The notes under the pieces are model-generated. The model searched no databases and was not told the origin of the DNA. It saw nothing but the letters and a program-made list of their open reading frames with translations. A program made the position numbers and the translations under genes. From an uncultured Gemmatimonadales bacterium (GTDB lineage: Bacteria; Gemmatimonadota; Gemmatimonadetes; Gemmatimonadales; Gemmatimonadaceae), in contig CAWBZV010000004.1 in NCBI GenBank assembly GCA_963793305.1, positions 64,001 to 128,000 of the forward strand: 64,000 bases of DNA, given 5' to 3'. Each line of letters opens with the position of its first letter. The stretch's first letter is position 1. Positions 51,286-60,726 of this stretch are shown here, piece after piece.

Positions 51286-51726
51286 CTAGCGGCGAATCGT
51301 CGCGCCGATGGCGGCCCCGAGGGCGAGCAAGCTCGTCGCGGCAGCTGCCACGGCGATCGGGCTCATGGCGATCGGCCGGCTCCACCACGGCGTCGCCGTC
51401 GCGGGCGTCGTCGCCGGCAGCGCGTCCATGATCTTCTGCGTCAGGTCGGCGGGCGTCACCAGGTAGCGCCGCTGCTCGAGATCCCGATCGACCCGCTTCC
51501 AGAACTCGACCTGCCGGGTCGCGTCGGCACCAGATACCGCCGTCTCGGGAAGCTCGCCGTCGAGCCACGCATGCACGAGATCCGACGTGCGCGTGCTGTC
51601 CGTGCCGCCGATCGGGACTTCCCGGTCGGAGACGCGGCGCACCGGCTCGCGCGACGACGGGCGCTTTGCCTCGCCGTTGTTCTCGCGCGACTCGGGGGTT
51701 GGCGCGTTCAGGTCATCATGCATCAC
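51286..51726 (-). CDS. Putative anti-sigma factor
   Basis: VHAWLDGEL, TPADLTQKIMDALP, C-terminal TM, ATGA-coupled to the ECF sigma gene. Confidence 0.65.
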   Translation of the reverse strand: MMHDDLNAPTPESRENNGEAKRPSSREPVRRVSDREVPIGGTDSTRTSDLVHAWLDGELPETAVSGADATRQVEFWKRVDRDLEQRRYLVTPADLTQKIMDALPATTPATATPWWSRPIAMSPIAVAAAATSLLALGAAIGATIRR

Positions 51727-52289
51727 GCGTATTTCTCCTCTAAAAGGACCTGGAGCGCCTCTCGAGCGCGATGTACGCGCATCTTGAGTGCTCCGACTGT
51801 AGTTCCGAGCAAATCGGCCATCTCTTCGTACGACCGCCCTTCGACGTGCTTCATCACGAACGCCTCGCGAAGCGACGGGGCCAACGCGGCGAGCGCGCGG
51901 TCGAGATCGCTTCTCAGCTCCGTCCGATCGAGATCCTCGTCGGGGGTCGCGTATCCAGACGGTTGATCGTCCTCATCGTAACTCAAATGGGTCCGCCGAA
52001 TGTTCTTCAGCCAGTCCTTGCACCCATTTGCCACGATTCGAAACACCCAGGCATCGAAGCGTCCCCGCACCTCAGCGAGGTGTTGGTACGCTTTGATGAA
52101 AGACATCTGCAGGATGTCTTCCGCAACATCAGGGCTCCCGGTCATGCCTAACGCGTGCCGATACAGCGGATCGCTGTACCGCCCGATGAGCTGGCTGAAG
52201 GCTTCGCGATGCCCCGCCAGGACCCGGGCGATGATCTGCTGGTCTGCTTCCAACTGATCGGCCTGAGCCGCCGTGACCGTTGTTTTCAC
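51723..52289 (-). CDS. ECF sigma-70 factor
   Basis: AEDILQMSFIKAY, FDAWVFRIVAN, SYEEMADLLG..LKMRVHRAR. Probable GTG at 52289 (track start 52379). Confidence 0.92.
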   Translation of the reverse strand: MKTTVTAAQADQLEADQQIIARVLAGHREAFSQLIGRYSDPLYRHALGMTGSPDVAEDILQMSFIKAYQHLAEVRGRFDAWVFRIVANGCKDWLKNIRRTHLSYDEDDQPSGYATPDEDLDRTELRSDLDRALAALAPSLREAFVMKHVEGRSYEEMADLLGTTVGALKMRVHRAREALQVLLEEKYA

Positions 52290-52394
52290 GGCGTTACCAT
52301 AACCTGTTTGGCTCGTACCGGATAGCCCCACGGACGTGCCTGCGTCCTTGACTGGTGCTGTCACGCCGTGATGACGCATTATGCAATACAGAGG

Positions 52395-53483
52395 TCACTT
52401 TCTGATCCGTAAGTAATAGATGAGTTCGGTAACACCCGATGCCCGGTATCGCCGATTCTCTCCATCCTGGTCGGCCCGATATCGTTTGTACAGTTGTTTG
52501 AACTGTCGTACAGGCTCAACAGCCCGTTGACCGAGAATGTCAAGAAACTCGTCATCGGACAGGATTCCTTCAGTGTTGTAGCTCACCAGGACGTGCCGAG
52601 CTCCCGTAGCGCCCAGAAGCTCCTCCAGCGCCCTAGCAGCCCCAGCTTTATTACACCAGAGGCTGGAAGGCGGCCTATCCACGGGAAGCCCTGTCTTTCC
52701 CTTGAGGACGGGCAAAGCCTCGAACCACCCCTTGGCGATGATCTCCGGTATATGGTAGTAGCCAGAGTACTGCCGGGCGTTATAGGGTGGGTCCACGTAG
52801 AGCAGGTCAACGGGTCCCACCTTCCGGGCGACCGTGGTCGCATCATCCCGATGGGCCCTGGATCCCGCAGCACGCGAGACTGGCCTGGCCGGTTGCATCC
52901 GAAATGTCTTCGTCGCATTCGGCTGCCACTTCTTGATGTAGGCGGCGTAGATGCCCGCGGTATTCGCCACCCGATCCGCGGCTTCGATAATCGAGGCCAG
53001 CAAGAGATAGTACGCGTCCTCGCTGACCAACTCGGCCTCTCTCCACCGGTGGAGCGCATGCCGAGCCGCATCGATGCGTCGTGCGTTCTCGTCGGTGAAG
53101 TACATCCGGCCACCGGTGGCCGAGAAATGTTGCGAGATGAATCCGTGCTCGGGCTCCACCCAGGCCGACAAGTACTCGGCGAGCACCGAGAGTCCGTCTC
53201 TCACCACCGGCATGTGCGCGATGGCGCGACGCAGATCGGCATCGCCGGCGGCGGCACGACGCGCATCCGGACCATGGCGGGCGACGACGTACGCGCGCTG
53301 AAACACGTAGGAGTACGTCATGACGTCGCTCGACTCGACGCGCCATCCGGCGGCTTTGAGCGAGCGCGCGACGGATGCGGTTCCCGCGAAGGCATCGTGC
53401 GCTCGACCCGGCGTCACGCCGAGTTGGAGCAAGACATCGCCGAGAAAGGGCAGGAGCTTTGTCTTATTGCCGATATACCGCAC
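52395..53483 (-). CDS. Orphan DNA adenine methyltransferase (D12 / alpha class)
   Basis: MRYIGNKTKLL, DAFAGTASV, LYVDPPYN..Y..YYH, VSYNTEG. Confidence 0.92.
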   Translation of the reverse strand: MRYIGNKTKLLPFLGDVLLQLGVTPGRAHDAFAGTASVARSLKAAGWRVESSDVMTYSYVFQRAYVVARHGPDARRAAAGDADLRRAIAHMPVVRDGLSVLAEYLSAWVEPEHGFISQHFSATGGRMYFTDENARRIDAARHALHRWREAELVSEDAYYLLLASIIEAADRVANTAGIYAAYIKKWQPNATKTFRMQPARPVSRAAGSRAHRDDATTVARKVGPVDLLYVDPPYNARQYSGYYHIPEIIAKGWFEALPVLKGKTGLPVDRPPSSLWCNKAGAARALEELLGATGARHVLVSYNTEGILSDDEFLDILGQRAVEPVRQFKQLYKRYRADQDGENRRYRASGVTELIYYLRIRK

Positions 53484-53492
53484 GCCGGCAGT

Positions 53493-54435
53493 CTACCACG
53501 TCGCTAGATGCCCGACAATCACAGATCCGACAAACCGCGCGACGGGCCCGCCGCGATACTCGCGGGTCTGGGTCGTGAGCCGGAGCTCCACGGTGTACCC
53601 GAACACGCGCGTCGCGGGCCCGATGTCGTAGGACGAGGTGAATGGCAGTGCGTCGGTGTGGCTGCTCGACCGAAACGTGCTGCCGTCGAGGAAGATGTTG
53701 CGCAGCACCCAGTCCTCGTGCGCGCCCACGACGACATAGAAATCGAACGGCCGCACCGTGGTATCGCCCCACGGCGTCTCGGAATGCAGGCCGAGGCGCC
53801 CGCGCGCGCCGACGCTCGTGCCCGTGCGCACGTTTCCGATGGCCGCGTTCCAATCGGGCGCGAGCTCGAATGACAACCCGTGCGGGAGCGTCGACTCGAG
53901 CAAGAGATACTGCTCGCCATAGCGCACGATGAGCCCAGGCTCGAACGTGAGCTGATTGCGCCAGCCAGGTACGGGGGGCCCGAGTCGCGTGATCTCGTGG
54001 AAGGTGTTCTGCACCCATCCCGCGAGGGACTGCGGACCGATCACGCCCAGGTCGGCGCTGAACGAGCGGAATCGTTCGCCGGACGTGGTCGAACGTCATG
54101 AGCTCGCCGTACAACCATCCCGCGTACGGCCGCTGACCAGGACCAGGATCAACAGGGTATCGCGTCGGTGTGTAGATCTCCTGCCCGAACGCGAATTGCT
54201 GCGAGGCGGGGGACTCGCCATCCCGCGACGAGCCGAGTATCTGGGAGAACAACTTCCACGGGTGCGCGATGCCGGACGTTATCCGGAGACCCTGGGTATA
54301 ATTGTCATCCGACCGTCGATGCGACGGCACCCAGACCGCGAGATTGCCATTGTCTTCCTGCACCGACCATTGCGCCATCCCAACGCTCGGGACGATCAGC
54401 AATGCGCAACATATCAGTCGGTCCAGTCGACGCAT
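53493..54435 (-). CDS. LpxR-family (lipid A 3'-O-deacylase-like) outer-membrane protein (frameshift near 54093)
   Basis: Signal peptide, EDN, DDNYTQG, GQEIYTP and RPYAGWLY, then LGVIGP..VQNTFH..GWRNQL and NIFLDG in the second frame. Confidence 0.82.
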
Positions 54436-54477: not shown

Positions 54478-55582
54478 TTACGGAATAGGTTCCTCGGCGA
54501 ACGCTCGCCAGCGCGCCGCACGAATGCGCTCGCCATGCTCATCCAGTTTCGGTGGTGGATAACGTACAGCGCCCGGGACACTTGGGCTCACGCCCGAAAG
54601 CGGCGAGCACTCAACGTCCCGTAACGATTCCAAAACCGATTTGACAACTCCGTTCGGAACGCCGGCTCGGTCGAGCCGTTCGATCCAGTCGGTCGCCGAT
54701 CGCTCCCGGAGCCGTGTCGCTATCGTCTCGACAATGCGCGCTCGCTGCTCGAGCCGCCCCGCGTTGGTCGCGAGGTCGGCGTCGGCCGCCAGGTCGCCGA
54801 GCTGCAACGCTTCGGCGCATCGCTTCCATTGGGCATCGCTGCCAACGGCCAGCACGATCGGCCGGTCGGCGGTCTCAAAGAGTTGATACGGCACGAGATT
54901 GGGGTGGGCATTCCCCCAGCGCTCGGCGTCCGTCCCACTCACGAGCGCGTTCTGCGCGACGTTGACCAGCGCGGCGGCGGCGCTGTGGGCGAGCGAGATG
55001 ATGATCCTCCGTGGGCCCGACGTGCGACCGACCAGTGCGCCCAAGATGGCGATGGCGGCGTCTTTGCCGGCGATGACGTCGGCGAGCGCGACGCCCACTT
55101 TCATTGGCTCGCCATGGCGCTCTCCGGTTATGGCCATCCATCCGCGTTCGGCTTGCACCGTAAAGTCGTAGCCCACACGCGAGGACTTTTCACCGAACCC
55201 GCTGATCGTGCACCAGAATGAGGCGCGGGTACTGTTCGAGGATCGTGTCCGGGTCCAACCCACGACGGGCCAAGGCGCCAGGGAGAAAGTTGTCGACGAC
55301 GACATCGGCTTGAGACGCGAGCTCGCGGACTAGCGCCTGATCAGCCGGGTCGTCGAGGTCGGCTGCTACACTCCATTTGTTTCGGTTGACGCTGAGGTAG
55401 TAGGCGCTCTGACCTCGAGCGTCGAAAGGGGGTCCCCATCCGCGGGTATCATCCCCCATGCGCGGGCGTTCTATTTTGATGACATGGGCGCCCATGTCGC
55501 CGAGCATCATAGTACAGAGAGGGCCAGCGAGCACCCTCGTGAGATCGAGTACTTTGATCGAACTGAGATATAACTGATTCAT
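54478..55582 (-). CDS. CaiB/BaiF CoA-transferase family III (frameshift near 55216)
   Basis: VLDLTRVLAGP, GDDTRGWGPP, NRNK and VDNFLPG, then CTISGFG, GYDFTVQA and GNAHPNLVPY. Confidence 0.9.
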
Positions 55583-55735
55583 TACTGTTGCTATAGAGTC
55601 GTAGCTTTCATGGCAATTCGGCTATGATCGGCATGCTTGCCGCTTGGGCCTCGAGGGAGCGCCGCTTGCGTAGATGACGAACAATCATATACTTACCGCC
55701 GCGCGTGGGTCTTAACCACACGGAGCACGCTATTC

Positions 55736-56374
55736 ATGGCGGATAAGCCGCATATACCTGACGCGAAATCCTCAGCGGACCCAGCCGCGTCGACGACCAA
55801 CTCGTCGACTCCGGTGGCGCCGAAGCGCAGTCCCGGCCATCGGGGCGCCGACGTTCGGGATACTGTCGCCGAAATGGCGGCCAAAGCTCAGGAGATCAGT
55901 CAGGAAGCCGGCAGCAAAATGGCAGCGGCCATGCGCAATGTCATCAGTGCCGCGGCCGGCATGTCCACGTTTGCCGCGGATTCCGCGCGCGACCTTGTCC
56001 AGTATATGGTGCGGCGTGGGCAGATGACGCAGGAAGAGGCCGACAAGCTCATCCGCGAGGCCGAGGAGGCAGCGGCGAAGCGCAATGTGAACCTGCCGCC
56101 GCCGCCGTCAAAGGTGCCGAAGCCGCCGCCACCACCACCACCGGTTGCGGTGATCTCTGCGCCGGTCGCGATGGTGCCAACTCCGGCCATCCATCACCCG
56201 GTTCCCGTCGTCAAGCCCGCACCGCAACCTGCGCCCGCGGTAGCGAAGCATCCCGCTCCCGTGAAGAAAGCGGCCGCACCCGCGCCCGCGAAGCACGTGC
56301 CCCCGCGGCCGGTCGCGAAGAAAGCAGCGCCGGCGAAGGCAGTCGCGAAGAAGAAACCGGCGAAAAAGCGCTAG
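55736..56374 (+). CDS. Phasin-like helical domain with Pro-rich linker and histone H1-like Lys/Ala tail
   Basis: MVRRGQMTQEEADKLI, PPPP linker, KKAAPAKAVAKKKPAKKR. ATG at 55736. Confidence 0.65.
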   Translation: MADKPHIPDAKSSADPAASTTNSSTPVAPKRSPGHRGADVRDTVAEMAAKAQEISQEAGSKMAAAMRNVISAAAGMSTFAADSARDLVQYMVRRGQMTQEEADKLIREAEEAAAKRNVNLPPPPSKVPKPPPPPPPVAVISAPVAMVPTPAIHHPVPVVKPAPQPAPAVAKHPAPVKKAAAPAPAKHVPPRPVAKKAAPAKAVAKKKPAKKR

Positions 56375-56408: not shown

Positions 56409-56525
56409 TCGAGAGGGTGACAATCGCACTTTGACGCGCACCGTCGATCCTGCGACTTTGTCCGTATGCCTCAATCATCGCAGGGGGAGGGTAGTATTTT
56501 TGGTATTCCTCTAAGAAGAGGCGGC

Positions 56526-56768
56526 ATGACGACGTATACGGCAATCGTCGAACGCGACCCAGATACTGGACTATACGTCGCCTATATCCCGGGATGGCCG
56601 GGGGCACACACGCAAGCGGCGACCCTCGATGAGCTACAGCAAAATTTGCGAGAGGTCGTCGAGCTCCTTCGCGAGGACGGCGAACCAGAGCTCGAAGCCG
56701 AGTTTATCGGCACCCAGATCGCACGGGATGTCCGGCTGACAGTGGAGGAGTTGCTCGCGGCCAAGTAG
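56526..56768 (+). CDS. hicB: HicB-like antitoxin ending in a HicA-like C-terminal remnant
   Basis: GAGG RBS, YTAIVERDPDTGLYVAYIPGWPGAHTQAATLDEL..NLREVVELL, tail QIARDVRLTVEELL. Confidence 0.8.
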   Translation: MTTYTAIVERDPDTGLYVAYIPGWPGAHTQAATLDELQQNLREVVELLREDGEPELEAEFIGTQIARDVRLTVEELLAAK

Positions 56769-56803: not shown

Positions 56804-57898
56804 TCAACGCGTTGTGGGTAAAGGCCTGTGAGAGGTTGCTGAGGAACTCTTCGGCTGCTTATACTCGAACCGCTGCCCACGGAAATTCCGGAAGACCACG
56901 CGGTCGTCCGTGATCTCCTCGACGTACTCGGGGAGCAACGGCACCTTGCCGCCACCGCCCGGTGCGTCGATCACGAAATGCGGGACCGCGAGCCCCGAGG
57001 TCCAGCCGCGGAGCGCCTCGATGATCTCGAGCCCCTTCTGCACCGTCGTGCGGAAGTGCTCGCCGCCGGCGACCTGGTCGGCCATGTAGATGTAATACGG
57101 CCGCACGCGCGCCTTGAGCAGCGCGTGCATGAGCGCCTTCATCACGACCGGGTCGTCGTTCACGCCCTTGAGCAAGACAGTCTGACATCCGAACGGGACG
57201 CCAGCCTTCGACAGGCGATCGAGCGCCGCCACGGCCGCCGGCGTGAGCTCGTCGGGATGATTGAAGTGCGTGTTCATGAACACGGGATGGTACTTCTGCA
57301 CCATCTCGCAGAACTCGGGCGTGATGCGCTCGGGCAAATGCGATGTGATTCGGCTCCCGATACGAATAATCTCGATATGCGGGATCGCCCGAAGCTGCTG
57401 AAACAGATACTCGAGCCGGCGATCCGAGAGCATCATGGGATCGCCACCGCTCAGAATGACGTCGCGGATCTCCGTGTGCTCCCGGAGATACGCAAACGCC
57501 GAGTCGTATTGATTGAGCGGAATCTTCTCCGGATCGCCGACTTTGCGGCGCCGGGTACAAAAACGGCAATATGACGCGCAGACGGGACTGACGAGGAAGA
57601 GCGCGCGATCGGGGTAGCGATGCGTGATGTTCGGTACCGGCGAGTCGGCATCCTCGTCGAGCGAATCGACGATCCCGTCGACGATATCCAATTCTTCGAC
57701 CGTCGGCACATACTGACGCCACATGGCGTCGCCCGGCGTTTTGATGAGATCAAGCGCGGCGGGCGTGATCCGCATCTGGAAATTGTCGAACGCAGGACCG
57801 AGAGCAGTCACGTCGATCTGCTCCGAGCCGAACCGCTCGGCGAGCTGCGCGAGCGTCGCGACGCTCCGATCCTTCAAGATCTGCTGCCAATCACTCAT
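56804..57898 (-). CDS. kamA: KamA-family radical SAM/PLP aminomutase (lysine 2,3-aminomutase-like)
   Basis: THRYPDR, CASYCRFCTRR, LSGGDP, THFNHP, QTVLLKGVND, RPYYIYMAD, RGWTSGLAVP, IDAPGGGGK (PLP Lys). Confidence 0.9.
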   Translation of the reverse strand: MSDWQQILKDRSVATLAQLAERFGSEQIDVTALGPAFDNFQMRITPAALDLIKTPGDAMWRQYVPTVEELDIVDGIVDSLDEDADSPVPNITHRYPDRALFLVSPVCASYCRFCTRRRKVGDPEKIPLNQYDSAFAYLREHTEIRDVILSGGDPMMLSDRRLEYLFQQLRAIPHIEIIRIGSRITSHLPERITPEFCEMVQKYHPVFMNTHFNHPDELTPAAVAALDRLSKAGVPFGCQTVLLKGVNDDPVVMKALMHALLKARVRPYYIYMADQVAGGEHFRTTVQKGLEIIEALRGWTSGLAVPHFVIDAPGGGGKVPLLPEYVEEITDDRVVFRNFRGQRFEYKQPKSSSATSHRPLPTTR

Positions 57899-58395
57899 GC
57901 CGCACCAAACCGTTTGGTGTACAACACCCGATCGTCGTCCGCGGCGTAGAAGCTCTGCACCCGAGCCGCCTCGGCGTACCCGCGCTTCTCATAGAACGCG
58001 CGAGTGGACGCATACGAGGGGCGTCCCGACGTTTCCACGATCAGCATCCGCGCGTTCCACGAAGCGAGGCGAGACTCGACGTCGGCCATGAGCGCGCCCC
58101 CGATGCCGTGGTTTTGGTGCGCGGGATGCACCGCGATCCAATAGAGGTCGTACCCGCGATCAGTGCCGAGCGTCGGCCCGAAGCAGACATAGCCAAACAG
58201 TCGCGCCGGATCCGTCGGATCGAACGCCCCGAGGAAGATGTAGTCGGGATCGCCGTCGCCCTCGTCGGGCGGGAAGGCATCGTCGAACACCTGCATCGCG
58301 ACCTCGGTCTCGGCGGCTGAAAACGCCCCGGTTTCGAGGACGAGTTTCTCCAACGCCTCACGATCAGACCGTCCGAGCGACCTGGCTGGCGTCAC
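57895..58395 (-). CDS. GNAT acetyltransferase
   Basis: GYVCFGP, YDLYWIAVHPAHQNHGIG, VETS..Y..TRAFYEKRGY. Confidence 0.92.
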   Translation of the reverse strand: MTPARSLGRSDREALEKLVLETGAFSAAETEVAMQVFDDAFPPDEGDGDPDYIFLGAFDPTDPARLFGYVCFGPTLGTDRGYDLYWIAVHPAHQNHGIGGALMADVESRLASWNARMLIVETSGRPSYASTRAFYEKRGYAEAARVQSFYAADDDRVLYTKRFGAA

Positions 58396-59429
58396 CCGTT
58401 CGCCAGCGCGAGATCGACGCCGGAGAGCCGCTGCGTGAGCGTCCAGTCATCGGCCCGCACGCCGTCGCGCGCCGCCAGTGCATGCGTCGCGATCAGCCGC
58501 ACGAGCGCCGGATAATCGAGACCGGCTGCCAGCGCCATCCTCGAAAGACCGGCACCCGGACTGGCGTCGGGGTTGGCATTCACCTCCAACACCCACGGAC
58601 GCCCGTGCCGGTCTATGCGCATGTCGACCCGGCCGTATCCTGCGCCACCCACGGCGCGCCACGCGGCGAGGGCAATCGACCCGATCTCGGCCGTCAACGC
58701 GTCCCCGAGATCGGCCGGGCATCGCGGCGCGGCGCCCAAGTCCTCGTCCGACCCGGTGACCCACTTGGACCGATAGGAGACGATACGCCACAGACCGCGC
58801 GGCATCGACGTGAAATCGACCTCGGCGATCGGCAGTACCTGGTTGCCGACGATGCCGACGTTCACCTCGCGGCCGTCGATGTAGCGCTGTACGAGCACCT
58901 CGTCCCAACACTCGTGCATTGCATCGACCCGTTCGGCCAGCGCGCGCGCCGTGCGAACCACCGACCGCTGCTCGACGCCAAGCGACGCGTCCTCGGCCGC
59001 CGGTTTGCAAATCGCCGGAAAGCCAACGGCCGGCAGACCCGTGCCGCCATCGCGACGGACGATCGCCCACCGGGGGACCGGCAGCCCCGCACGGTCGAGC
59101 ATCGTGTTCACGAGATGCTTGCGGAGGCAGAGGGTCGTGGTGGCCGAGGAACTGCCGGTGTATGGGAGCCCCATGAGCTCCAGCGCCGCGATCACCGCCG
59201 GCTCGAGCGCGGCGACGCCGTCGACGCCCTCGCACAGATTGAACGCGAGATCGAACTTCGCCTTGCGGACACGCTCCATCCATCGCGCATCCGGGTTGAC
59301 CGGAATCCGCACGGCCTCGTGGCCGTCCTCGGCGAACACCTGCTCCACCGCCTCGACCGCCTCGAGGATCAGCATGTCGGGCGTTTTGCCGAGCGCCGAG
59401 GCGCCGTCGAAGAGGATCGCGACTTTCAT
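58392..59429 (-). CDS. Ddl-like ATP-grasp ligase B
   Basis: FNLCEG, PYTGS, CKPAAEDASLGV, QRYIDGRE, SYRSKW, YGRVDMR, VLEVNANPD. Confidence 0.9.
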   Translation of the reverse strand: MKVAILFDGASALGKTPDMLILEAVEAVEQVFAEDGHEAVRIPVNPDARWMERVRKAKFDLAFNLCEGVDGVAALEPAVIAALELMGLPYTGSSSATTTLCLRKHLVNTMLDRAGLPVPRWAIVRRDGGTGLPAVGFPAICKPAAEDASLGVEQRSVVRTARALAERVDAMHECWDEVLVQRYIDGREVNVGIVGNQVLPIAEVDFTSMPRGLWRIVSYRSKWVTGSDEDLGAAPRCPADLGDALTAEIGSIALAAWRAVGGAGYGRVDMRIDRHGRPWVLEVNANPDASPGAGLSRMALAAGLDYPALVRLIATHALAARDGVRADDWTLTQRLSGVDLALANG

Positions 59430-60550
59430 GCGGCCCCCCGCGCGGCAAATCGCACGGCGCTCCGGAGCGGGATACCCTGACGCTGCGCCGCCAGCATCGA
59501 ACAGGTCTGAATCAGCTCGTCGTACGACATACCCGCGGCCCGCGCGGCTTTCGGGAAGCAGGAATTATCTGCCGGGTCTGGAAGAATGCCCGGGAGCGGA
59601 TTGATCTCAACGACGCACGGGACGCCATCGGCGTCGAGCCGGACGTCGACGCGCGACCAGTCGCGGCAGCCGAGGACGCGGTATGCGGCCAGCGTGACGC
59701 GCTCGATCTCGAAGCGGAGCTGGTCGTCGATCGGCGCCGGGCAGGCAAAGATGTCGAGCGGATGGTCGGGGCGATCCCAGAGCCACTTGGCTTCGAACCC
59801 GTAGATCGGGAGCGCACCAGCCGGCAGCGCGCTGAAGTCGATGCCGACGATCGGCAGCACCTGAGCATTGCCGCCGTTGCCGAGCACCGCGCAGGTGAAC
59901 TCATCGCCGGGCAGATACTCCTCGACGAGTACGGGCTGCGTGTACTTGTCGAGCAGGAACCTGACCTGAGCGTCGAGCTCCGCCGGAGTCCGGCAGAGGT
60001 TTCGCTCAGTGATCCCCTTTGACGATCCCTCGTGCAGCGGCTTCGCGAACAGCGGGAAGCGGAGGCGGCGAAGACGCGTGAGACCGCCCGACAGGTCGTC
60101 GCCGTGGTTGACGACCTGGAACGCCGCGGTCGGGATGCCGTGGTACGACAGGACCTCCTTGGTCCGCGCCTTATCCAGGCAGAGGGCCAAGGTGAACGGG
60201 TCGCTGCCCGAGTAGGGAATTCCATAGAACTCGCAAATCGCCGGCACCAGCGCCTCGCGATTCGCCCCACCCAGTCCTTCGACCATGTTGAACACGATGT
60301 CGGGGCGCGTCTCGCGCAGCCGCTCCGGGAAATCCATCGTGGCCTCCAGTCGGACTACCTCGCCGAGCGCCGAGAGGGCGTGCTCGACGGCATCGATCGT
60401 CTGCTCGTCGTCCCACTCCGCGAACTCATCGTCGGGTTCGCCCAGACTGGGAGGTTCCTCGGCCCGCGGGTCTCCTTCGTCCTCACCCGCTGGTACGAGC
60501 ATCGCTTCGGCGTCAGGCTTTTGATTGTACGTGAATCCGATTCGCGTCAT
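59426..60550 (-). CDS. Ddl-like ATP-grasp ligase A
   Basis: FNMVEG, PYSGS, KPLHEGSSKGI, EEYLPGDEF, YGFEAKW, SRVDVR, VEINPLPG. AAGGA RBS and ATG at 60550. Confidence 0.9.
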   Translation of the reverse strand: MTRIGFTYNQKPDAEAMLVPAGEDEGDPRAEEPPSLGEPDDEFAEWDDEQTIDAVEHALSALGEVVRLEATMDFPERLRETRPDIVFNMVEGLGGANREALVPAICEFYGIPYSGSDPFTLALCLDKARTKEVLSYHGIPTAAFQVVNHGDDLSGGLTRLRRLRFPLFAKPLHEGSSKGITERNLCRTPAELDAQVRFLLDKYTQPVLVEEYLPGDEFTCAVLGNGGNAQVLPIVGIDFSALPAGALPIYGFEAKWLWDRPDHPLDIFACPAPIDDQLRFEIERVTLAAYRVLGCRDWSRVDVRLDADGVPCVVEINPLPGILPDPADNSCFPKAARAAGMSYDELIQTCSMLAAQRQGIPLRSAVRFAARGAA

Positions 60551-60726
60551 CCGGTCCTTGCGTGCGTTGAGCCTCGTGCGACCGACGAGCAAGAGCGATG
60601 CCAGTTACGAATTGGCGGGAGTATACCGGTCGCGAATTTGTAGCGCAATGACCTTTATCACGCGCGCGGCGAAAAAGTTCGCGATGTGCGCGAGAGTCTC
60701 GCGATATGCGAGGCGTCGAGGCTCGG

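Follow-up and report, generated by a model that had tools for sequence, protein, structure and literature searches.

A conserved operon of two Ddl-fold ATP-grasp ligases, a GNAT acetyltransferase and a KamA-family aminomutase in Gemmatimonadota: a candidate pathway to a beta-lysine-containing peptide

What is made by two ATP-grasp ligases, a small acetyltransferase and an aminomutase that are encoded as one chain of overlapping genes? The question is raised by positions 56804-60550 of a 64,000-nucleotide stretch of contig CAWBZV010000004.1 (assembly GCA_963793305.1, an uncultured Gemmatimonadales bacterium), the whole of which is called the window here. [quoted passage not shown] The operon is a real, conserved and uncharacterised biosynthetic unit, and as classified from its sequence it belongs to none of the Ddl, AblAB and EpmAB systems. 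On balance it probably makes a small intracellular beta-lysine-containing peptide, which would be a di- or tripeptide, optionally acetylated. No published account of this gene set was found in the literature searched, a scope without supplements and without Iyer et al. 2009, the likeliest prior genomic-context source. The four genes are the following:

59426-60550, minus strand: ligase A, 374 amino acids (aa), Ddl-fold ATP-grasp amide ligase of the EGSS...NPLPG type
58392-59429, minus strand: ligase B, 345 aa, Ddl-fold ATP-grasp ligase of the EDAS...NxNPD type
57895-58395, minus strand: GNAT acetyltransferase, 166 aa, small, of the PDB 2R7H family
56804-57898, minus strand: KamA, 364 aa, KamA-family radical S-adenosylmethionine/pyridoxal-phosphate (PLP) aminomutase of the lysine 2,3-aminomutase type

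All four open reading frames (ORFs) were intact and, as first described, were chained by three 4-nucleotide (nt) overlaps, ATGA at 59426-59429, GTGA at 58392-58395 and ATGA at 57895-57898, while an alternative TTG start of ligase A is possible at 60592. The motifs reported earlier were also present in the translations: FNMVEG/FNLCEG, YGFEAKW/SYRSKW and RVD..EIN/RVD..EVN in the ligases, and CASYCRFC, YMAD and VID, plus GGGK, in KamA. A promoter scan of the operon returned 0 sigma-70 sites, terminator-like hairpins numbered 1 against 2.8 expected by chance, and Rfam gave no match in the 5 loci scanned, the operon among them. Soil metatranscriptomes yielded 22 runs with small shares (0.05-0.14), and contigs from four soil RNA runs touched all four genes at 85-99% likeness, although contigs cannot show transcription.

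Conservation of the operon and exchange of its aminomutase

Gene order was surveyed in the 80 best related genome loci and in a separate set of 80 more distant metagenome loci. Nearly all of the closest genome loci bore the titles Gemmatimonadaceae, Gemmatimonadales or Gemmatimonadetes, and the top match had 94% identity. The order A-B-GNAT-KamA was found in 62 of the 80 genome loci and A-B-KamA in 12, with 6 cut by the end of the locus, so the arrangement is not due to chance and the four-gene order put forward for survey is conserved. The gene thyX lay alongside the operon in 76 of the 80. Among the metagenome loci KamA was present in 49, GNAT in 18 and both in 14, and of the 35 loci that reach 9 kb or more 25 had KamA. 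Gene orders varied in this set and included K-A-B-G, A'-A-K, A-K and a K~A fusion.

Co-occurrence was counted in 301 genomes drawn evenly from the phylum, the host genome and G155 included. Among the matches listed, with 33 weaker ones lying outside them, ligase A occurred in 136 genomes, the operon-type kamA in 118 and both in 117. The two genes lay within 5 kb of each other in 112 of these 117 genomes and on separate contigs in the other 5, which speaks against the possibility, raised at the outset, that KamA is usually unlinked from the ligases. In the sole kamA genome without a scored ligase A the operon was split at contig ends. Across the 300 relatives ligase A was patchy: one family had it in 30 of 70 genomes, another in 102 of 125.

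Ligase A was found without the operon-type kamA in 19 genomes, and the 17 of these regions that were examined all read A-B-GNAT. A long KamA of ~460 aa, ~31% identical to the window KamA, was carried by 18 of the 19, so that some aminomutase of either type was present in 135 of the 136 genomes with ligase A, while no genome of the 301 carried both types. For these counts G114 (35% identity) was left out of the long-KamA set, and G114, G011 and other matches at <=50% identity were left out of the operon-type set. The long kamA directly followed the GNAT gene in G143, that is, in the kamA slot, and lay 11-19 kb from the operon in five other genomes. FastTree trees were built for ligase A (17 long and 18 short rows) and ligase B (16 long and 18 short), the short rows standing for 18 of the 118 genomes. 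The KamA-type label needed 4 changes on either tree, each forced by branches with support of at least 95. This pattern may have arisen by replacement on four occasions, or by a smaller number of gains and then reciprocal loss, and under either history the long and operon-type aminomutases behave as interchangeable.

The long KamA was 60% identical to Streptomyces proteins annotated as lysine 2,3-aminomutase. One such Streptomyces gene sits with genes for capreomycidine synthase, VioC, a non-ribosomal peptide synthetase and a glycosyltransferase, a cluster that we read as streptothricin-type; streptothricins contain beta-lysine. Because the operon's aminomutase was swapped for a streptothricin-cluster-like enzyme and the two never occurred together, beta-lysine is supported as the ligase substrate, and the repetition of the swap narrows that substrate. 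In G043 (L094:2714-5613) a long KamA was followed by an ORF reading as a class III aminotransferase near CoA-transferase-like genes, a set that possibly serves beta-lysine catabolism.

Ligases, aminomutase and acetyltransferase

Ligases A and B scored 118.8 and 94.6 bits with PF07478, respectively. The best scores with curated Ddl/Van models were 180.5 bits for A and 156.2 bits for B against a cut-off of 243, other models scoring lower, and the GGxSxE motif of Ddl was absent from both. The host genome's own canonical Ddl, with GGSSSERDVS, LHGGQGEDG and YDYECKY, lies on another contig, and the earlier reading of both ligases as lacking the true-Ddl signatures holds.

Equivalents of E. coli DdlB K97, K144, E187, K215, R255, D257, E270 and N272 were present in both ligases, and since the ATP, metal and Arg255 residues are kept, both look catalytically active. 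Glu15 and Arg255 belong to the DdlB active site according to the available text of PMC5717164. The Glu15 column did not align confidently to either ligase. Glu took the place of His63 in every aligned sequence (44 of A and 39 of B), which would give an acidic pocket suited to a polyamine-like substrate. Trp stood at the Tyr216 position in 24 of 44 A and 38 of 39 B sequences. Residues E45, E91, R98 and E99 of ligase A were unchanged in all 44 aligned relatives, and E45, E91 and E99 form an acidic N-terminal cluster. B-type ligases had Gln at the Glu180 position in 31 of 39 sequences and Asp at G149 and G276 in 38 and 35 of 39, respectively, where 25 of the 39 rows are close relatives of one another. 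In a quick tree the A-type (EGSS, NPLPG) and B-type (EDAS, NPNPD) ligases formed separate branches, and some operons carried two A-type copies instead of A and B.

The model of ligase B (predicted local distance difference test, pLDDT, 91.4) had DdlA as its nearest structure, with Z 32.6, a root-mean-square deviation of 2.6 and 302 aligned residues, while LysX/ArgX and RimK followed at Z 22.4 and 21.8. For the A family, the model of relative P0147, 46% identical to the window ligase A, matched the Ddl fold in Foldseek with a template-modelling (TM) score of 0.77. The A-B heterodimer suggested earlier was modelled, and the predicted pairing resembled the Ddl dimer. Its score was 0.66 against 0.00 for the best control, with at least 89% of contacts agreeing between runs and a partner pLDDT of at least 85; the mark for this score was reached by 116 of 157 solved pairs and 2 of 215 mismatched pairs. 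The A-B pair may have passed only through its likeness to solved Ddl dimers. Both ligases resemble Ddl/Van enzymes in fold, in the residues for ATP and metal and in the predicted dimer surface, but they fall under all cut-offs, differ at the motif and pocket positions above, and form two different subunits beside a true ddl elsewhere.

Fusions among 150 representatives joined two ligase domains in 39, ligase and KamA in 3 and ligase and GNAT in 2. At L137:6954-12034 KamA was fused to ligase A and followed by two B-type ligases, with no GNAT of the 2R7H type. Many ligase B homologues bore a precomputed match to the tubulin-tyrosine ligase (TTL) family PF03133. The clusters obtained from the ESM Atlas were all Ddl-like and automatically named, and the B-like ones among them were commonest in Pseudomonadota, Planctomycetota and Myxococcota by automatic label. 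Ddl-like ATP-grasp genes of the wider family also occurred on rhizobial plasmids (L089:7773-8783, L090:7791-8798 and L198:6491-9095).

The window KamA was a member of the KamA family (TIGR00238, 285.5 bits, cut-off 199.2) and had the CxxxCxxC motif and the PLP lysine. The specific models ranked lysine 2,3-aminomutase AblA first (TIGR03820, 427.8 bits, cut-off 525.4), followed by glutamate 2,3-aminomutase (TIGR04368, 383.2, cut-off 650), arginine 2,3-aminomutase BlsG (TIGR04468, 317.6, cut-off 600) and EpmB (218, cut-off 369), so that each score fell under its cut-off. The TIGR03820 match spanned profile positions 19-366 of 417, the C-terminal part being absent from KamA. A search of 61 genomes with the glutamate-aminomutase model at E<=1e-150, too stringent a limit to be informative, gave no match. 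A quick KamA tree, which carried long-branch warnings, did not resolve the operon KamAs as one clade relative to AblA, BlsG and EpmB, and residues and model scores were therefore used for the class.

Asp293 and Asp330 of lysine 2,3-aminomutase contact the side-chain amine of the substrate, and both are replaced in glutamate 2,3-aminomutase. The window KamA, 46% identical to annotated AblA, aligned to lysine 2,3-aminomutase 2A5H at 368 bits, and its D274, D311 and K318 correspond to D293, D330 and K337 of 2A5H (numbering counted from the alignment), in agreement with the earlier claim of Asp at both amine sites. All 69 genome loci and all 38 metagenome loci had the Asp293 equivalent, and that of Asp330 was present in 68 of the 69 (one gap) and again in all 38. 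The window KamA also has the Lys337 equivalent, as do 68-69 of 69 genome loci and all 38 metagenome loci. Annotated BlsG arginine aminomutases had Thr at the Asp330 position in 2 of 2. With Asp there and with its TIGR04468 score, the window enzyme is unlikely to make beta-arginine. Only one KamA-family gene, the operon's own, was found in the host genome. Two plasmid-borne relatives stood apart, one an annotated ablA of Ilyobacter polytropus that encodes a 716-aa fusion of aminomutase and GNAT domain (L196:2929-5079), the other a KamA without the Asp330 equivalent on a Rhizobium plasmid, immediately preceded by a more distant ATP-grasp gene.

The window GNAT matched Pfam GNAT families, and its closest solved relative was 2R7H (E 7e-28; by profile E 5e-49, next best 1e-8), which the PDB labels 'putative D-alanine N-acetyltransferase of GNAT family'. 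We take 2R7H to be a structural-genomics target from a Desulfovibrio, presumably named after neighbouring Ddl-like genes. The nearest NCBIfam model was RimI, far below its cut-off, and there was a weak match to nourseothricin acetyltransferase (E 0.012). An identity as AblB was rejected, with no AblB model match and an hhalign probability of 17% over 24 columns against annotated AblB; annotated AblB had no tblastn match in the host genome (92% complete) either. The 2R7H-type GNAT came after a B-type ligase in all 18 metagenome loci having it, 4 of which showed no KamA, while elsewhere a different GNAT family lay upstream of kamA or was fused to A.

The 12 GNAT-less genome loci held a frameshifted GNAT relic in nine cases and a short clean gap in three, and one metagenome locus also had a frameshifted relic. 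This refines the proposed acetylation: the GNAT is kept with the operon but is dispensable in 12 of 80 loci and is not of the AblB type. The relic, of ~335 nt, precedes kamA at L012:8235-8575, L017:10374-10711, L048:10400-10762 and seven more loci, and two short blocks were invariant across the 10 loci despite the broken frame. It folds into several hairpins, with double changes in 6 of 82 pairs and no Rfam match, and is possibly a gene in decay, or one put to new use as structured RNA. A riboswitch in the GNAT-replacing gap was rejected, as the gap is collinear with GNAT coding DNA and had no Rfam match.

Proposed pathway and competing explanations

In the proposed pathway KamA would isomerise L-lysine to beta-lysine, and ligase A would activate beta-lysine as an acyl phosphate and join it to an amine acceptor. 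Ligase B, in one heterodimer with A, would add a second amide bond using ATP, and the GNAT would optionally cap the free amine with acetyl. The evidence argues strongly that beta-lysine is the aminomutase product and that the ligases depend on it. It is moderately well supported that ligase A handles beta-lysine, because A is the gene that steadily accompanies KamA and is in some cases fused to it, and likewise that B makes the second bond and that the GNAT belongs with B. Least secure in the mechanism is the physiological role: the product may perhaps be a recyclable cytoplasmic solute, such as a stress protectant, polyamine-like cation or nitrogen store, and not an exported antibiotic. Hydrolase genes occurred sporadically in the 80 metagenome loci and fit turnover of an acetylated peptide: an HDAC-family deacetylase and a peptidase S51 turned up in 2 loci each, and a peptidase S58 accompanied ligase fusions lacking kamA in 4. 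The core of the initial annotation, namely formation of beta-lysine, its ligation by two non-Ddl ATP-grasp domains and acetylation, came through every refuting test that was run, while its cell-wall and protein-modification options found no support in gene context.

Several observations weigh against this pathway. The GNAT was absent or decayed in 12 of 80 genome loci while B remained, 10 of the 35 metagenome loci of at least 9 kb showed no KamA, and A-K and A'-A-K operons exist, so that B-type ligases are not universal. In some KamA-free loci ligase fusions lay beside S58 peptidase and RimK/GshB-like genes, and judging by these loci the ligase family appears to work in other settings too. Since KamA scored under the cut-off of every specific model, ornithine or another basic amino acid may be the substrate. 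In G033, the nineteenth genome with ligase A and no operon-type kamA, the ligases were present and no KamA was found, the operon running off the contig end, and G094 had a long KamA but lacked the ligase pair. Few hydrolase neighbours were found, and the genomes surveyed are related rather than independent.

Among other explanations, the ligases might attach beta-lysine or a beta-lysyl dipeptide to an envelope polymer or precursor (stem-peptide terminus, surface glycan or lipid), which we consider unlikely. Ddl is the nearest fold for both ligases, and the label of 2R7H names D-alanine as the substrate, but a canonical ddl is present elsewhere in the genome and the operon is patchy among the relatives. 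Moreover, among the 46 of 85 flanking proteins, picked from the 80 metagenome loci, that were scanned, there was no Mur, Fem or VanX/Y match and no exporter or wall enzyme recurred. A Mur ligase lay several kb from the operon in 5 loci.

It is rather improbable that the ligases tag a protein or carrier protein post-translationally with beta-lysine, in the style of RimK, LysX or tubulin ligases, and that the GNAT caps the tag. The TTL matches of many B homologues and the RimI model, though far under its cut-off for the GNAT, would suit such a tag, while the fold of B is nearer to Ddl than to LysX/ArgX or RimK, and neighbour clustering of ORFs of at least 70 aa gave no conserved substrate or carrier gene. 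Elongation factor P (EF-P) is an unlikely target. EpmB, like the window enzyme, is a KamA-family enzyme making beta-lysine, but the EpmB model was far from its cut-off. No EpmA over cut-off was found in the host genome (92% complete), where the best GenX match (243.7 against 286.9 bits) reads as a lysyl-tRNA synthetase behind prfB. The modified lysine of E. coli EF-P lies in a loop that reads PGN, without lysine, in the EF-P found here (L203:1498-2109, G000:C2), and the doubt already voiced about an EpmA/EpmB route is borne out.

The same pathway could yield an exported bioactive peptide, with the GNAT as a self-protection or prodrug acetylase like streptothricin acetyltransferase, but this has a low probability. 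Beta-lysine synthesis and ATP-grasp enzymes come together in the negamycin cluster (bioRxiv 10.1101/2025.05.27.656397, in its accessible part), and kamA2 lies in the region required for negamycin in the portion available of 10.1101/2025.07.31.667836. Linked ATP-grasp ligases with GNAT capping appear as a general theme in the accessible text of PMC4431377. A Thioflavicoccus plasmid on which diaminopropionate and diaminobutyrate genes accompany a KamA and an A-like ligase, and the weak nourseothricin acetyltransferase match, point the same way. The operon resembles such carrier-free clusters in combining beta-lysine formation with ATP-grasp amide ligases, but no hydrazine, hydroxylase, methylase or export genes were seen among the neighbours scanned, its ligases are Ddl-derived, and its chromosomal site behind thyX is fixed and housekeeping-like. 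No tailoring, export or resistance genes recurred among the scanned neighbours (46 of 85 proteins, many loci being short), and the GNAT can be lost.

Synthesis of the osmolyte N-epsilon-acetyl-beta-lysine by KamA and the GNAT alone, with the ligases separate or in a side role, is the least probable: AblA and AblB do form an operon with this product and share the first step (PMC1224877, in the text available), AblA is the best-scoring specific model for KamA and 2 loci have a mechanosensitive-channel-type helix protein upstream, but the GNAT is of another family and size than AblB (166 against ~280 aa) and is the part lost while A, B and kamA are retained, the core partners are two ATP-grasp ligases that AblAB lacks, KamA is fused to ligase A in some relatives, and the 2R7H-type GNAT follows a B-type ligase even in the 4 metagenome loci without a visible KamA.

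If the beta-lysine peptide pathway is right, a common four-gene module that is now annotated as extra D-Ala-D-Ala ligases makes a new beta-amino-acid peptide in 136 of the 301 Gemmatimonadota genomes sampled and in a variety of lineages elsewhere. Many annotations would then be corrected. The module would add a carrier-free route to beta-peptides, and its ligases, accepting beta-lysine, would be useful as biocatalysts. A wider proposal, tentative and rather short of even odds, is that of a widespread bacterial beta-peptide: an acetyl-capped beta-lysine di- or oligopeptide made by a heterodimer repurposed from D-Ala-D-Ala ligase. In Gemmatimonadales and numerous further lineages it would act as a compatible solute resistant to proteases, or stand in for polyamines, and would be important enough for its aminomutase to have been exchanged for a foreign one on several occasions instead of being lost.

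Variant loci and neighbouring genes

On Thioflavicoccus mobilis plasmid pTHIMO01 (L088:5611-12475) the A-like ligase and KamA were accompanied by SbnA, an ornithine-cyclodeaminase-like gene, a diaminobutyrate transaminase and a 451-aa ORF without a Pfam match, and this set is a candidate beta-lysine/diamino-acid peptide cluster. A KamA-free variant (L171:7002-14430, also L120, L125 and L183) had a fused A-type ligase pair followed by the peptidase S58 gene. The downstream genes of L171 read, from their translations, as ATP-grasp, M14-like hydrolase, RimK-like and GshB-like.

Next to the operon in the window, a short HicB/UPF0150-like ORF below Pfam cut-offs (56466-56768, plus strand) converges on kamA; its tail resembles the end of HicA, and we take it to be possibly a collapsed toxin-antitoxin pair. 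A Pro/Ala/Lys-rich ORF with a histone-H1-like tail (55637-56374, plus strand) had no convincing Pfam match, and its 5' part was covered by contigs of four soil RNA runs. A family III CoA-transferase gene (54478-55582, minus strand) and an LpxR gene (53464-54435, minus strand) were each broken over two frames, and lysS on contig C11 is apparently also split over frames, each as an assembly indel or a pseudogene. A D12-class adenine DNA methyltransferase gene (52395-53483, minus strand) is adjoined by an ORF at 51723-52379 that reads as an extracytoplasmic function sigma factor.

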